Sequence record: NC_054933.1
DNA length: 64,000 bases
DNA from: Escherichia phage teqhad
Direction: 5' to 3' (one strand)
Position numbers and translations under genes: made by a program. The notes beneath the pieces are model-generated. The model was not told the DNA's origin, ran no database searches, and saw only the letters and a program-made list of their open reading frames with translations. Of this stretch, positions 2,601 through 11,077 are shown in pieces; the first letter of the stretch is position 1, and every line of letters starts with the position of its first letter.

Positions 2601-3560
2601 TCACTTCCACTGCATTTCACATGCTAATTGAATGAAAAGATAAGCTAAATGCAATTCAGTATTAGCTGCAATACCATGATACTGATTATTTTCGCCGACA
2701 ATTTCGTACATACGAATAATACTCTGTGGAGTTACACGTGAATAGATTTCTTCGGCAAGTTTACCCACGAACCACGAATAATCGGCTGCATATTTTGGTG
2801 CTAAAGCTCTGAGTTGTTTAACATCTTTATTTTTGAGAGACTCAAGAACATCATCAATAGCACCACGATCGTTAGTAACCAGTGATAAAATACCAGCATC
2901 CAAAACACCTTTAGATGAATAACTATCGAGCTCGCCAATAGTTTTACGAAAATCAGGAAAATTCTTTTTAACCAAAGCTGCTACAACTTTCATATCAGCT
3001 ATAGCAATTCCTTCATGCTTACAGATTTCAGTCAATCGACGAATCATCTGCTTCATCATTTCAATTTTATCTTCATCGGTCGGTTGACCGAATGTAATAA
3101 CTCGACAGCGTGACTGAAGTGGTTTAATAATACCATCAATATTGTTAGCAGTAATAATAATACTACAGTTTGAACTATAAGCTTCCATAAAGGAACGAAG
3201 ATGTCGCTGAGACTCTGCTAACCCTGAGCGGTCAAATTCATCAATAACGATTACTTTTTGACGACCATCAAATGAAGCGGCGCTGGCAAAATTAGTCAAA
3301 GGACCACGAACGAAATCAATTTTACAATCTGATCCATTCACAAACATCATATCAGCATTTACATCATGACACAATGCTTTTGCTACAGTTGTTTTACCTG
3401 TTCCTGGAGAAGGAGAATGAAGAATAATATGTGGAATCTTACCTTTACTTGTAATAGATTTAAAGGTTTCTTTATCAAAGGCGGGAAGAATACATTCATC
3501 GATAGTAGATGGACGATATTTCTGTTCAAGAATGTGTTCTTTTTCATTTACGGTAATCAT
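2601..3560 (-). CDS. 44: clamp loader large subunit (AAA+ ATPase)
   Basis: 319 aa from [18 protein letters not shown]; Walker A SPGTGKTT; track start at 3575 is a TTG codon. Confidence 0.93.
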
Positions 3561-3595
3561 AATTTCCTCATTCAAGTTTTAGTGTAAATTATAAA

Positions 3596-3607
3596 GGGCC
3601 GAAGCCC
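3596..3607 (-). terminator. UUCG-tetraloop hairpin in the 45-44 intercistronic region
   Basis: Minus-strand RNA GGGC-UUCG-GCCC. Confidence 0.5.
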
Positions 3608-3611
3608 TCTA

Positions 3612-4298
3612 TTAAAAATCGTGGGTAGAATCAGCTTCAAGAGCTACTACATAATTCGCATGTTCACCTTCAAATTTAGCAGCACCTTGTTTACCTTTTG
3701 CCCAGAGCAGAAGTTTATAATTTCCTGGTTGCATTTTCATATTTGCCATATTGATAATGAAATTAAATGTATTTTCACCATCATAATCACCAAGAGTCAA
3801 AGAATATTTAACACGGGTCAGAGCAGAATCTTCTACTTTATTAAAACCGTTAATTACGATTTTACCTTCTTTTACCGTGATAGCAATTGTATCAATTTGC
3901 AGACCACGAGATACACGCAACAGCTGTTGAAGGTCTTCAGCTTTAATTTCAGTAACAACAGATGCTACCGGGAATGGAATTGGTTTATTAGGAGCAACTA
4001 CTGTACTCGGATCGGCTGCTGGCCAAAAAATTGTTGAACGAGCATCAGCAATTTTAATATTTCCATCTTCTGACTGGGAAATTTCTGCATCATCATTAAC
4101 TAGAGACAGAATACCGAGAAAACCGTTCAAATCGTAAATTGCTACATCAAAATCAATAGTGTCAGAAATATTTGCTTCCGCATAAGTTGTACCATTAACT
4201 GCACGAGTCATAATAAATTGACCTGATTTAAGCATAATACCAGAGTTAATAGTAGCGAAATTTTTAAGCAGAGCAGTAGTATCTTTAGACAGTTTCAT
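3612..4298 (-). CDS. 45: DNA polymerase sliding clamp
   Basis: 228 aa, MKLSKDTTALLKNFATINSGIMLKSGQFIMTRAVNGTTYAEANISD... recognised as gp45. Confidence 0.95.
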   Translation of the reverse strand: MKLSKDTTALLKNFATINSGIMLKSGQFIMTRAVNGTTYAEANISDTIDFDVAIYDLNGFLGILSLVNDDAEISQSEDGNIKIADARSTIFWPAADPSTVVAPNKPIPFPVASVVTEIKAEDLQQLLRVSRGLQIDTIAITVKEGKIVINGFNKVEDSALTRVKYSLTLGDYDGENTFNFIINMANMKMQPGNYKLLLWAKGKQGAAKFEGEHANYVVALEADSTHDF

Positions 4299-4353
4299 GT
4301 AATTTCCTTCAATTCAAATGAGATTTAATTTTATAACTAATTTAATAAAGCAA

Positions 4354-4743
4354 TTAACGATTAAAATCAGCCGCAATTGTTTCCGCAACAATTTGTGCAG
4401 CAACAATTAGACGTTCATCTGCATTACCGCAATAATCATCTTCAAGGCGTTCACCGCATGAAGTCATAATAAATTTAGCACCGGCGTTTAGGGATTCTGT
4501 AGTATGTTTGCGCATTAATTCAATCCATTTATTACTTACTTCACGATCGATAGCTTCATAATACGCATGACGAGCAGGTGCAGATTTAATTTTGTTCTGA
4601 ATAACTTCCATTGCATTATCAGAAAGAGACAAAACCCATGCTCGACGAATTTTATTTTGGTTTTGTGGATTTGATTCAGAACGCACGTGTTTTGGCTGAA
4701 TATCTTTTACATCAACAGTATAATTCACAGTAATTTTAGTCAT
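4354..4743 (-). CDS. rpbA: RNA polymerase binding protein A
   Basis: 129 aa; position directly downstream of gene 45. Confidence 0.85.
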
Positions 4744-7653: not shown

Positions 7654-7840
7654 TATCTAAAATGTTGAAGTTAAAAGATACAGCCCAGTCAGTGCAGACT
7701 GTAACCTTTTTAATACAATTATCTTCAACCTCTAGTGGTTCAAACCAATATTCAATAATTTCTTTATGCCCAATATCATCTTTTACTTCGCATTCAAAAT
7801 GCTGACTCATCATAACATTTTTAAATTCATCAAAAGTCAT
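7577..7840 (-). CDS. hypothetical small protein (46.2-like position)
   Basis: 87-aa ORF immediately downstream of gene 47. Confidence 0.5.
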   Translation of the reverse strand: MTFDEFKNVMMSQHFECEVKDDIGHKEIIEYWFEPLEVEDNCIKKVTVCTDWAVSFNFNILDNDTPKSLQDMAVSCIKDAYCEVFDI

Positions 7841-8856
7841 TGTGTTGCCTCTACATATAACTGATTTGCATATTGAATAAGTGCTTCACGGTCAGAATCA
7901 GTGATGTCTGGAATTGCATTAATGTATTCTTCCATCAACGTCTGAAGAGATTGAACTTCAACTTCTTCACTGTCATCTGACTCGACAGAGTTATCAATCT
8001 TTGACACAACTCGTAATGAATGCACAACTTTTTCTAGTTCAGATTCGAACTTCGTCAGATTTTTGTCTACTTCAGTTACTATAACACGTACTGATAGATT
8101 TGTAAAATCTTTATAGTCAATTTTTCCTTTAAACGGATAATGAATTCTACGATGCCAGGTAGTATTGTTTGGAATAAATTCCATTCGTTCTGTTTCTGTA
8201 TCAAACATCCAGAACCCACGAGGGTCATTCTCGTCACCTGCTGTTAGTGTCCATGGTGTCCCAATATATCTGACGTTAGCAGCCTCAGAGATAGTATGGA
8301 AGTGACCAGACCACACCTCTTTATAAGTCTTAAGGAAATCAGGTTCAAGACCGTGAGATTTCATTCCTTTATAAAAATAAAATCCATTCAGTTCCCAGTG
8401 ACCAACACAAAAAGAAGCAGATGAAGTTTTGATGTGTTCAAGAATTTCACCAGTATTTTCTTCGCACATCCAAGGAATCAAATCAATCAAACACCCGTCA
8501 AAATCTACTGTAGTAGGCTTATCATACACTTTAACATTATGATATTTAGCCAAAAGCTCAGTAGAGGCATTTGGATGCATTACATTTTTGTAGTGGAGAT
8601 CGTGATTTCCTACAATAGTATGTAATGTGATTCCAGCGTCATCAAGCATTTGAACTATTTCACGGGCAAACTCCATAGTTTTATGCGTGATTGCTTTTCG
8701 CACATCAAAAATATCACCATATTGAATCCATACAGTAATTCCATTTTTCTTAGAATATTCTATCGCTTGCTTAATTCCATCAATTTGAATACCGCGAATC
8801 CACTCATCATCAGCTTTAACGCCTAAATGCCAATCACCCAAGTTTAGTATTTTCAT
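7837..8856 (-). CDS. 47: recombination nuclease subunit (Mre11/SbcD-like phosphoesterase)
   Basis: 339 aa; GDWHLG and GNHD phosphoesterase motifs; ATG at 8856-8854. Confidence 0.92.
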   Translation of the reverse strand: MKILNLGDWHLGVKADDEWIRGIQIDGIKQAIEYSKKNGITVWIQYGDIFDVRKAITHKTMEFAREIVQMLDDAGITLHTIVGNHDLHYKNVMHPNASTELLAKYHNVKVYDKPTTVDFDGCLIDLIPWMCEENTGEILEHIKTSSASFCVGHWELNGFYFYKGMKSHGLEPDFLKTYKEVWSGHFHTISEAANVRYIGTPWTLTAGDENDPRGFWMFDTETERMEFIPNNTTWHRRIHYPFKGKIDYKDFTNLSVRVIVTEVDKNLTKFESELEKVVHSLRVVSKIDNSVESDDSEEVEVQSLQTLMEEYINAIPDITDSDREALIQYANQLYVEATQ

Positions 8857-9457
8857 GGTGTCTTTTCCATCCTAATTTAGCTGCTTTTGAAACCAGTTCT
8901 TTAATTTTTCCTTTTGTCCATTCAGGACCAGGAGGTTCATGACATAACATTTGCTTAACTCCGTTATTATACCATTTTTTACCTTTATTATGTGATGAAG
9001 CTTTAAATTTATTTGACCTTCCTTTTACATAACCTTCTGGAATATAAGGCAAAAAGGCAGATTTTCCTGTTAATGGATCATGTGAATGTATATTTCCTTT
9101 ACAATTATGAGAACCATATAATGGATGATTTTGTCCTTTATTATCTCTTCCAAATGAACCTTTTGGAGCAGCATATGACATATTAAAGAATAATGGATTT
9201 TTAACTGCATCATGCAATCGTTGATAATATAACTCGCATTTAATAGCTTCTTCACGCGTATCAAATTCAGCTAAAATGCATGAATCAAATAAGTGAGGAT
9301 TATCTGAAAGCTCTTTATTATAAATTTTCTTATACTTTTTAGATAAAACTGAACCATGATATCCAGCTAAATGCCTATCTAAAGACGTAGATCCAATATA
9401 AAAAGGAGGAAGTTTATCTCCACTATATATTGTTAAATAAGTTATATATTTTTTCAT
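8834..9457 (-). CDS. GIY-YIG-type (Seg-like) homing endonuclease
   Basis: 207 aa; N-terminal YITYLTIYSGDKLPPFYIGSTS matches GIY-(10 aa)-YIG spacing; NHPLYG element; lysine-rich C-terminal tail. Confidence 0.65.
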   Translation of the reverse strand: MKKYITYLTIYSGDKLPPFYIGSTSLDRHLAGYHGSVLSKKYKKIYNKELSDNPHLFDSCILAEFDTREEAIKCELYYQRLHDAVKNPLFFNMSYAAPKGSFGRDNKGQNHPLYGSHNCKGNIHSHDPLTGKSAFLPYIPEGYVKGRSNKFKASSHNKGKKWYNNGVKQMLCHEPPGPEWTKGKIKELVSKAAKLGWKRHHENTKLG

Positions 9458-9594
9458 ATATCAAGAACCGTCATTGAAATGCAAAATAAAATTATTGAAA
9501 TAAACCCATCTGGTGTGCTAAAGAACCCAATCCAACATGCTTTAGTGAATAGATAAAATGCAAGAAAAAGTATCACATATCCAAGAAATATCAT
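9454..9594 (-). CDS. small hydrophobic protein (46 aa), ATGA-coupled to the GIY-YIG gene; below track cutoff
   Basis: ATG at 9594-9592; MIFLGYVILFLAFYLFTKACWIGFFSTPDGFISIILFCISMTVLDI; stop TGA overlaps downstream ATG. Confidence 0.35.
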   Translation of the reverse strand: MIFLGYVILFLAFYLFTKACWIGFFSTPDGFISIILFCISMTVLDI

Positions 9595-9617
9595 TATATC
9601 AAACTCCGTATAAAGCT

Positions 9618-9636
9618 AAAGGGCCGAAGCCCTTTA
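9618..9636 (-). terminator. UUCG-tetraloop hairpin overlapping the a-gt stop codon
   Basis: Minus-strand RNA AAAGGGC-UUCG-GCCCUUU. Confidence 0.5.
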
Positions 9637-10836
9637 TTTTGTAATAATGTCAAACTGTTCTTTAAAGCAGAAGCTTGAATCTTGATGCTGATACAAAAAT
9701 TCATATGCTTTTTCTCGCTCACGGTCATAAAGAGCTCGGTCAGATGACAGTTCTTTAATACGCTCAAATGTTGATTCCATATCATTTTCATCAAACCAAA
9801 TGATACCGCTATCATGCGAGGTCAAAGGAGTATTATCAACACGGAATTTTAAATTTTCGCCAGTAGATTTCCAAAATACCGGAATTGTTCCACATGCACC
9901 AAGCTCGAGATGAGTATATTCTAAAGAACGTTGTAGATATTTTTTATCCAACTTACTCAACTGATAACCAAAACCGGATTTACTCATGCGTTCAAGCATT
10001 TCGCTATTTACATAACGATCAAGAATTTGCGTTGGCAAATTAGGAGCAATTTTAATTTGGTCTACTTGATGAAGACGATAATACTCGTATGGAATTCCTT
10101 TTTCTTTAATAGGAATGAACGCTGGAGAACGTTCCAGACCTTCCATAATAGTACTTAGTCCTGCAGGTTTAAGATGTTTTTCATGAAAATCAAACATCTG
10201 ATAAAAACCTTTCCATGTAGTCGTACGACCAATCCATCGGTTGACATTCATGTTAATTTCAGAAACATCTTTCCAGTAGGTTGACCGAACCTTCGCAATA
10301 TCCATAGGAGGCTGAAAGTTATATACGGTCGGCGCTTCTTCAATATCATCAAACAAAGAAACTGTTTCAGGATACCATTCTTTCATCAGAACTTTATTAA
10401 AATCGCCATTATCAGAATGACTAAAAATAACATCAGCTCGACGAACAGTTTCTTCTAATCCCAAATTTCGGCGCAAAGAAAGAGAAGAATGGTCATGTTG
10501 ATAAACTACAACACGAACCGAAGGTTTAATGTTATCAATAATTTTTTTATAGTTATTAATAGTGTCTTCTTCAACTGAAGTAGCAGGAACTGAATTGATA
10601 ATTAGAATATCACAATCATTTACCAGCTTAAGTGTTTTATCGTATTCTTTTGCCAATAAAACCGGAATTGAAAATGATTTATAATCATGTGCGCAATTAC
10701 GAGTAAATGATTTATCTTTAGCATAAACCAAAGTTACTTCATGACCATTTTTAATAAACCAATCACGTTGCTCAAGAGAAAATTTAGTTACACCACAACC
10801 TTCAAGACCTCGAGCCATAAAAATACATACTTTCAT
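9634..10836 (-). CDS. a-gt: DNA alpha-glucosyltransferase (hmC glucosylation)
   Basis: 400 aa; MKVCIFMARGLEGCGVTKFSLEQRDWFIKNGHEVTLVYAKDKSF... recognised as T4 a-gt. Confidence 0.92.
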   Translation of the reverse strand: MKVCIFMARGLEGCGVTKFSLEQRDWFIKNGHEVTLVYAKDKSFTRNCAHDYKSFSIPVLLAKEYDKTLKLVNDCDILIINSVPATSVEEDTINNYKKIIDNIKPSVRVVVYQHDHSSLSLRRNLGLEETVRRADVIFSHSDNGDFNKVLMKEWYPETVSLFDDIEEAPTVYNFQPPMDIAKVRSTYWKDVSEINMNVNRWIGRTTTWKGFYQMFDFHEKHLKPAGLSTIMEGLERSPAFIPIKEKGIPYEYYRLHQVDQIKIAPNLPTQILDRYVNSEMLERMSKSGFGYQLSKLDKKYLQRSLEYTHLELGACGTIPVFWKSTGENLKFRVDNTPLTSHDSGIIWFDENDMESTFERIKELSSDRALYDREREKAYEFLYQHQDSSFCFKEQFDIITK

Positions 10837-10903
10837 TTAATATCCTCATTGTTTTTGGTTTATTTTACCAAAAATTTATAAAGCAATATAGGAGCCGAAG
10901 CTC

Positions 10904-11077
10904 CTATCCGCATAATACGCCATACAAAGGCTCATTAGAGCTTCTAAATTTTATGCGCTTATATGTTATAGTTCCTTCTGCTTTAGCTTTATCGTAAGAC
11001 TCTTTAAAGCGTCTCATCATTTCTACTTTAGAGGAACGAATTTTATTATAATCTATTTCAGAAGTCTGGATGTTCAT
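10904..11077 (-). CDS. possible small ORF (57 aa), below track cutoff
   Basis: ATG 3 nt after the stop of the upstream ORF; stop sits inside a GGAGC-UUCG-GCUCC hairpin; weak SD. Confidence 0.3.
   Translation of the reverse strand: MNIQTSEIDYNKIRSSKVEMMRRFKESYDKAKAEGTITYKRIKFRSSNEPLYGVLCG

Follow-up and report, generated by a model that had tools for sequence, protein, structure and literature searches.

A putative SegE-like homing endonuclease gene at the start of recombination gene 47 in Escherichia phage teqhad

The present analysis concerns a 64,000-nucleotide stretch of the genome of Escherichia phage teqhad (NC_054933.1; hereafter, the window) and, within it, an open reading frame (ORF) for a protein of 207 amino acids (aa) located between the recombination gene 47 and the glucosyltransferase gene a-gt. 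Sequence comparison and structure prediction make it quite probable that this ORF is a free-standing homing endonuclease gene whose product targets the gene 47 region. By profile comparison, the endonuclease belongs to the Seg class of GIY-YIG nucleases, and the first codons of gene 47, into which the 3' end of the endonuclease gene extends, include a candidate for the target site.

Insertion of the endonuclease gene between genes 47.1 and 47

All genes of the locus are encoded on the minus strand of the window, in the order a-gt (9634-10836), a UUCG hairpin (9617-9636), a 46-aa hydrophobic ORF (9454-9594), the 207-aa ORF (8834-9457), gene 47 (7837-8856), 46.2, 46.1 and 46. The ORF list and the sequence thus bear out the initial annotation of the window, which had placed both ORFs between gene 47 and a-gt and had noted the overlaps at each end of the endonuclease gene. 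The stop codon of the 46-aa ORF overlaps the start codon of the endonuclease gene in the tetranucleotide ATGA (9454-9457), and the last seven codons and the stop codon of the endonuclease gene are read, in another frame, across codons 1-8 of gene 47, an overlap of 23 nt (8834-8856). Gene 47 encodes a subunit of the SbcD/Mre11-like recombination nuclease, as judged from the T4 annotation and from 99% aa identity to T4 gp47, and its start specifies the peptide MKILNLGDWH, which includes the GDxH phosphoesterase motif; the stop codon of the endonuclease gene is embedded in the codons of this metal-binding motif.

In T4 (NC_000866), a-gt is followed by 47.1 and gene 47, and the same ATGA serves as the stop codon of 47.1 and the start codon of gene 47. 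Alignment of the window with T4 reveals a clean 601-bp insertion exactly at the 47.1/47 junction (8857-9457, minus strand), with near-identical flanks; the heptamer ATGAAAA is found at both edges, which are accordingly ambiguous by 7 nt. The statement, in the initial annotation, that T4 carries no seg gene at this place is therefore correct, and the interval is not identical in the two phages. The endonuclease gene is located between phage genes, outside any intron or intein, has clean boundaries and is present in some close relatives and absent from others. By the comparison with T4, it occupies the coupling position that gene 47 holds in T4. The GC content of the inserted gene is 0.25-0.31 (window 8900-9500) compared to about 0.35 in the flanks; higher AT content is common in mobile endonuclease genes.

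The comparison with T4 shows that the 46-aa ORF does not encode a novel peptide associated with the endonuclease. Sequence identity and position show it to be gene 47.1, a resident phage gene for a small predicted membrane protein, which is conserved in hundreds of endonuclease-free phages. Its product is identical to that of T4 47.1 (NP_813808, 46 aa, annotated as a predicted membrane protein) at 45 of the 46 aa positions, the sole difference being the conservative R18K, and at 138 of the 141 nt; it also matches phrog_6693 (E 7.6e-31), and the ratio of nonsynonymous to synonymous substitution rates (dN/dS) against the homologue of Gaprivervirus VR20 is 0.12. As in T4, 47.1 follows a-gt and the hairpin and ends in the same ATGA, which in the window opens the endonuclease gene and in T4 opens gene 47. 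The ATGA coupling to the endonuclease gene might be taken to suggest that the ORF is an accessory of a mobile element, for example, a co-mobilised immunity or regulatory peptide, but we consider this very improbable: in T4, in about 435 other records and in Gaprivervirus VR20, all of them free of the endonuclease, 47.1 is present and is joined to gene 47 through the ATGA, and no 47.1 ORF precedes the orthologous endonucleases of phages SEA1, IME08, NC-G and avDM2. 47.1 is found in carriers of the endonuclease as well as in non-carriers and therefore does not belong to the mobile element; this role for the ORF was rejected.

The ATGA overlap also bears on the expression of the endonuclease gene, the translation of which is probably coupled to that of 47.1. 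In the window, no Shine-Dalgarno sequence is apparent ahead of the endonuclease start. In a scan for sigma-70 promoters and terminators, promoter-like sites were less frequent than in shuffled controls and no convincing candidate preceded the endonuclease gene, and the T4 late-promoter motif TATAAATA was not found anywhere near the locus; a dedicated endonuclease promoter is accordingly not claimed. Among the 12 free-standing endonuclease ORFs of T4, 5 overlap the upstream ORF, which suggests translational coupling (PMC2988022), so that the arrangement of 47.1 and the endonuclease gene is typical rather than odd.

Relationship of the endonuclease to the Seg family

The assignment of the 207-aa protein to the Seg-like GIY-YIG nucleases, as made in the initial annotation, is supported by the predicted fold, by profile comparison and by the pattern of presence and absence among relatives, and can be narrowed down to SegE-like. 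Residues 9-24 comprise the motif string TIYSGDKLPPFYIGST. The spacing of 10 residues originally reported for the motif has to be corrected, given that only 8 residues separate TIY (9-11) from YIG (20-22); the usual GIY-to-YIG spacing is 10-11 residues. In the structural model, TIY and YIG are located on strands 4-11 and 19-25, respectively, which form an N-terminal beta-hairpin. In an alignment of 47 homologues, Y11, Y20, I21 and G22 are at least 90% conserved, and E75 and N92 are invariant; the former is presumably the counterpart of the metal-binding glutamate E75 of I-TevI, and the latter that of the conserved asparagine N90. E75 lies inside the Pfam match (residues 4-84) and is aligned with I-TevI E75 in a low-confidence hhalign comparison.

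The N-terminal catalytic domain (about residues 1-105; 9143-9457, minus strand), which includes TIY, YIG, R28, E75 and N92, is predicted to adopt the beta-beta-alpha-alpha-beta-alpha GIY-YIG fold. The best structural match of this domain is the catalytic domain of I-TevI, followed by other GIY-YIG nucleases. The C-terminal region (about residues 106-207; 8837-9142, minus strand), supported by model secondary structure, NUMOD3 similarity and the alignment with SegE, contains a NUMOD3-like NHPLYG motif, two beta-hairpins (KGKKWYNNG...) and a terminal helix (186-203) in the model; the Pfam domain NUMOD3 is matched in the C-terminal region of 24 of the 47 homologues. As the initial annotation had indicated for the tail, this region is basic, with 19 lysines and arginines compared to 6 aspartates and glutamates, and it is presumed to bind DNA.

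When the family profile was compared with every T4 GIY-YIG protein by hhalign, SegE emerged as the best match (96.9%, E 1.4e-10), with residues 18-190 aligned to SegE 15-198, so that both domains are covered. The probabilities for the other Seg proteins were 95.2% (SegG), 92.4% (SegC), 89% (SegB), 84% (SegA) and 41% (SegD), and no signal was obtained for SegF, I-TevI, I-TevII, EndoII or the HNH protein MobB. SegE is a free-standing GIY-YIG endonuclease of 205 aa which is inserted between inh and uvsW and targets uvsW; its BLASTP identity with the 207-aa protein is 28% over 193 aa. Both proteins combine an N-terminal GIY-YIG domain with a basic C-terminal region, and each is encoded directly upstream of its target, actual (uvsW) or presumed (gene 47) (PMC2988022). 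The teqhad gene differs in its insertion site and presumed target, in overlapping both neighbours and in apparently being devoid of a ribosome-binding site of its own. By the profile comparison, SegG, SegC, SegB and SegA fall within the same Seg clade, although their similarity to the teqhad protein is mostly confined to the catalytic domain; these proteins, whose targets are gene 32 (SegG), 5.1/5.3 (SegC), the tRNA region (SegB) and uvsX (SegA), are free-standing and patchy in their distribution, and in T4 x T2 crosses they promote marker exclusion (PMC2988022). The td intron endonuclease I-TevI (PDB 1LN0/1MK0), unlike the teqhad protein, is intron-encoded, with a GIY-YIG loop of 10 rather than 8 residues; the teqhad protein contains neither the zinc finger nor the helix-turn-helix and displays no significant sequence-profile similarity to I-TevI.

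Several results weigh against the GIY-YIG assignment. As a single sequence, the protein scores 21.4 bits (E 3.1e-4) against the Pfam GIY-YIG family (PF01541), just under the gathering cut-off of 22.6, and this family is matched by 14 of the 47 family members at E<0.01. R28, which is located in helix 26-30 and is the counterpart of I-TevI R27, is replaced by glutamine, asparagine or serine in a minority of homologues, with lysine or arginine retained in only about 80%. Hidden Markov model searches of PDB sequences yielded nothing useful with the single sequence or with the family profile, and the hhalign comparison with I-TevI was insignificant. The near miss in Pfam is outweighed by the predicted structure and by the profile-profile comparison with the Seg proteins, which together carry the assignment.

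The designation 'HNH endonuclease', which is the product name in many RefSeq records (orthologues in NC_054911, NC_055723, NC_054919 and others) and in phrog_10820, the PHROG family matched by the 207-aa protein at E 1e-94, would imply a beta-beta-alpha-metal motif, and has next to no probability. No Pfam HNH family is matched at E<=1, the structural neighbours consist of GIY-YIG nucleases only, with no HNH structures among them, and the profile is unrelated to T4 MobB while being clearly related to SegE, SegG, SegC, SegB and SegA. On these grounds an HNH identity was rejected; the product name is wrong and constitutes a systematic annotation error. Other names in use are 'putative homing endonuclease', in the BASEL phage records, and 'hypothetical protein' elsewhere; in phage IME08 (HM071924) the endonuclease gene is unannotated and the start of gp47 has been extended into it. 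NCBIfam contains no model that matches the 207-aa or the 46-aa ORF.

Phyletic distribution and evolution of the endonuclease gene

The 207-aa protein has 170 homologues in the protein database search and a further PHROG match, to phrog_314 ('homing endonuclease', 5e-18). Compared to the orthologues from other genera, the dN/dS of the endonuclease gene is 0.10-0.22, with dS near saturation, so that these values are read only as clear purifying selection. Taken together with the values given above for 47.1, the selection, the PHROG matches and the homologues indicate that neither of the two ORFs is a chance ORF. The gene is already contained in dozens of GenBank records.

A megablast search with the 1.1-kb locus detected 515 phage records, only 64 of which cover the locus in full, all at no less than 98.6% identity; for the BASEL phage FriedrichMiescher (Bas39), a carrier, the identity across the locus is 99.3%. 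Allele counts were obtained with two 66-nt junction probes in short-query megablast searches of the phage collection. The probe for the uninterrupted T4 junction (end of 47.1 joined to the start of 47) is matched end-to-end by 462 records, of which 27 belong to more distant genera, leaving about 435 Tequatrovirus records; 9 of the 462 have four mismatches. The probe for the endonuclease/47 junction is matched end-to-end by 67 records, which puts the carriers at roughly 13% of the sequenced Tequatrovirus records (67 of about 500). A tblastn search at E<=1e-3 found a relative in 173 records, far below the 500 or more Tequatrovirus records; therefore the resident seg genes evidently went undetected, and the endonuclease represents a separate subfamily at the sequence level. 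When the ORFs of the window with a length of at least 60 aa were all searched with the profile, no paralogue belonging to this subfamily emerged.

Orthologues directly upstream of gene 47 and overlapping its start were identified in four other genera. In Gelderlandvirus, the protein of Salmonella phage SEA1 shows 79% aa identity to that of teqhad, with a 23-nt overlap with gene 47; the corresponding values are 61-63% and 14 nt for phages IME08 and NC-G of Dhakavirus, and 51% and 23 nt for Aeromonas phage avDM2 of Biquartavirus. The fourth genus, Jiaodavirus, is represented by Klebsiella phage KPV15 (69%), in the record of which (KY000080; 1998-3610 of the compared locus) frameshifts split the essential gene 47 as well as the endonuclease orthologue, which suggests sequencing errors rather than real pseudogenes. 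In SEA1, IME08 and avDM2, the orthologue is preceded by a terminator hairpin and a short spacer. The aa identities of the endonuclease (79/61/51%) roughly track those of gp47 (73/72/53%), as would fit a long association with the locus.

Allelic variation at the start of gene 47 and the candidate target site

Codons 3-6 of gene 47 are ATT TTA AAT TTA in T4 and ATA CTA AAC TTG in the window. The four changes, at nt +9, +10, +15 and +18 of gene 47 (8839-8848, minus strand), are all synonymous and define a TTTA allele in T4 and an ACCG allele in the window. In an alignment of 13 Tequatrovirus loci, no other position from -47 to +45 varies, and the four changes are tightly linked to the insert. The ACCG allele was found in 66 of the 67 carrier records and in about 9 of the 444 endonuclease-free ones, a strong association that could also reflect linkage. 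The sole carrier of TTTA is ERS-1 (PP337211; 931-1554), a record flagged UNVERIFIED_ORG. Two pairs of compensating frameshifts interrupt its endonuclease ORF, so that the record represents a copy in decay or else an assembly that is poor or chimeric. A pattern scan of IMG/VR for endonuclease-free junctions retrieved 6 contigs only, all with the T4 allele, which is too few for counts.

The first 29 nt of gene 47 (window 8828-8856) are identical in the endonuclease-free phages of Tequatrovirus (T4 and six IMG/VR contigs), Gaprivervirus (VR20 and CJ20) and Mosigvirus (PNJ-9 and phi25-307), while the sequences upstream and downstream have diverged among these phages; in Mosigvirus, the upstream sequence is entirely different and 47.1 is absent. 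Conservation of the gene 47 start at the nucleotide level is unusually strong. All five endonuclease-bearing genera differ from this sequence within nt 9-18 of gene 47, each by substitutions of its own.

Recognition or cleavage of the conserved gene 47 start by the enzyme, together with protection of the carriers by silent changes, would be expected to leave such an allele pattern. The four differences are a candidate self-protection polymorphism in the presumed target site. That the site lies within nt 1-30 of gene 47 and that the ACCG allele confers immunity is an appealing possibility, to which we would give close to, though not quite, an even chance. A more comprehensive scenario is slightly more tentative still: in no fewer than five genera, a single endonuclease lineage would have kept its place at the first codons of gene 47, recognising the invariant nt 1-29, and each carrier lineage would have escaped self-cleavage by different changes in nt 9-18, synonymous ones in the case of the window.

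The points that tell against a target at this position are of different kinds. The counts given above are of records, which include RefSeq/GenBank duplicates and are phylogenetically non-independent, so that they do not represent independent events. Nine endonuclease-free records, SHFML-26 among them, carry ACCG, and three of the nine were verified; their junction is the exact product of a deletion between the ATGAAAA repeats, and these phages may be loss derivatives. The four changes are also located in the 3' coding end of the endonuclease gene and in the translation-initiation region of gene 47, where other selection, or hitch-hiking, could account for them. Finally, the cleavage sites of the Seg enzymes characterised so far are usually hundreds of bp distant from the respective endonuclease genes (PMC2988022), and therefore the cluster of changes at nt 9-18 need not be the cleavage site. 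A literature search found no paper that names or describes the gene or an endonuclease at the 47.1/47 junction.

Competing explanations

The most serious alternative is that the protein is an active homing endonuclease which cuts at another place in gene 47, or in 47.1 or a-gt, at a distance of tens to hundreds of bp from codons 3-6. Under this scenario, ACCG would be a donor haplotype carried along by hitch-hiking, or would reflect adaptation, either in the endonuclease tail or in translation initiation of gene 47. Besides the cleavage far from the endonuclease gene that is typical of the free-standing T4 enzymes (PMC2988022), the effects of the four changes fit with it: they alter the tail of the endonuclease (HENTKLG versus HENFKFR before the stop codon) and fall in the initiation region of gene 47, which in the window is no longer preceded by the ATGA coupling, and nine endonuclease-free phages carry ACCG. 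Set against this are the restriction of variation to four sites between -47 and +45 in the 13 loci, the identity of the endonuclease-free allele in three genera as opposed to the differences of all five carrier genera in the same 10-nt stretch, and the absence of conservation of the tail residues among the orthologues. On balance, a distant site appears rather unlikely, if by no means far-fetched.

Alternatively, the gene could be a domesticated or inactive relic that is kept because its 3' end supplies the initiation context of gene 47, such that only precise deletion is tolerated. The overlap with the gene 47 start in every genus examined is compatible with such a role, as is the divergence of the endonuclease in rough proportion to that of gp47, as for long residence; moreover, endonuclease genes are known to be retained for embedded signals needed by downstream genes (PMC2988022). 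Nevertheless, the dN/dS of the whole protein and the invariant E75 and N92 argue for a function at the protein level, the presence of the gene in about 13% of the records of one genus, with carriers >98.6% identical in nucleotide sequence, looks like recent spread, and gene 47 is expressed without the endonuclease in the endonuclease-free phages. The relic scenario is accordingly considered improbable, and homing directed at the gene 47 region is preferred over both alternatives.

Proposed mode of spread and implications

Under the preferred reading, that of a free-standing homing endonuclease targeting the gene 47 region, the sequence of events can be modelled on the behaviour of the Seg family, for which intronless homing and marker exclusion have been demonstrated experimentally in the case of SegA, SegB, SegC, SegE, SegF and SegG (PMC2988022). 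The endonuclease gene would share a transcript with 47.1 and gene 47, and its translation would be coupled to that of 47.1; its 3' end forms the new upstream context of gene 47. The basic C-terminal region would bind DNA and tether the GIY-YIG domain, as in other members of the family, and, where a carrier and a relative lacking the endonuclease, for example T4 or T2, infect the same cell, the enzyme would cut both DNA strands of the relative within or close to the highly conserved start of its gene 47. Recombination-dependent repair from the carrier genome would then copy the endonuclease gene and flanking markers into the cut genome. The carrier itself would be protected by the four synonymous changes, by the insertion, which would split the site, or by both.

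The endonuclease described here reveals no new mechanism: it is an ordinary member of the well-known Seg class, and the gene is already present in public records. What is added is that the protein is related to SegE, that the small ORF is gene 47.1 and that the endonuclease gene is attached to the start of gene 47 in several genera; a candidate target is proposed, together with naturally occurring alleles that may be resistant, and the annotation is corrected. The T-even system of homing and marker exclusion would thereby gain a Seg-type endonuclease with a candidate target, roughly the first 30 nt of gene 47, and the 46/47 recombination-nuclease region would be open to endonuclease-driven gene conversion in therapeutic and model T4-like phages. 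This is relevant to the reading of mosaicism and to the prediction of the outcome of co-infection in phage cocktails. Should the scenario of a single lineage attached to the gene 47 start hold, the five genera would offer a natural series of matched variants of enzyme, target and resistant allele for the study of co-evolution between GIY-YIG nucleases and their targets, as well as a previously unmapped marker-exclusion locus over the essential 46/47 recombination nuclease genes.

Other features of the locus

The GC-rich UUCG hairpin, located just past the a-gt stop codon and identical in T4, sets a-gt apart from the translation unit formed by 47.1, the endonuclease gene and gene 47; several related records list it as a terminator.

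Additional ORFs were noticed around gene 46. The interval between 46.1 and 46 is occupied by an annotated homing endonuclease in phage SHFML-26 (2964-3034 of the compared locus) and, in phage BCPEco_001, by an ORF with the same coordinates and size (2964-3034) that is annotated only as hypothetical; SEA1 encodes a 280-aa ORF between 47 and 46 (3615-4457 of the compared locus). Judging from these sequences, the 46/47 region seems to be a preferred site for mobile endonuclease genes.

On the other side of a-gt, the gene for the HNH homing endonuclease MobB, which in T4 lies between a-gt and a-gt.2, is missing from the window (10837-11077), T4 carrying about 860 bp extra at this site (2828-3731 of the compared T4 stretch). 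The two phages thus have mobile endonuclease genes on opposite sides of a-gt, T4 being mobB+/seg- and the window phage mobB-/seg+. The product of a-gt.2 in the window (10904-11077) is 91% identical to the T4 protein, and the first codons of a-gt, beside the mobB insertion or deletion, differ between the two phages, encoding MKVC in the window and MRIC in T4.

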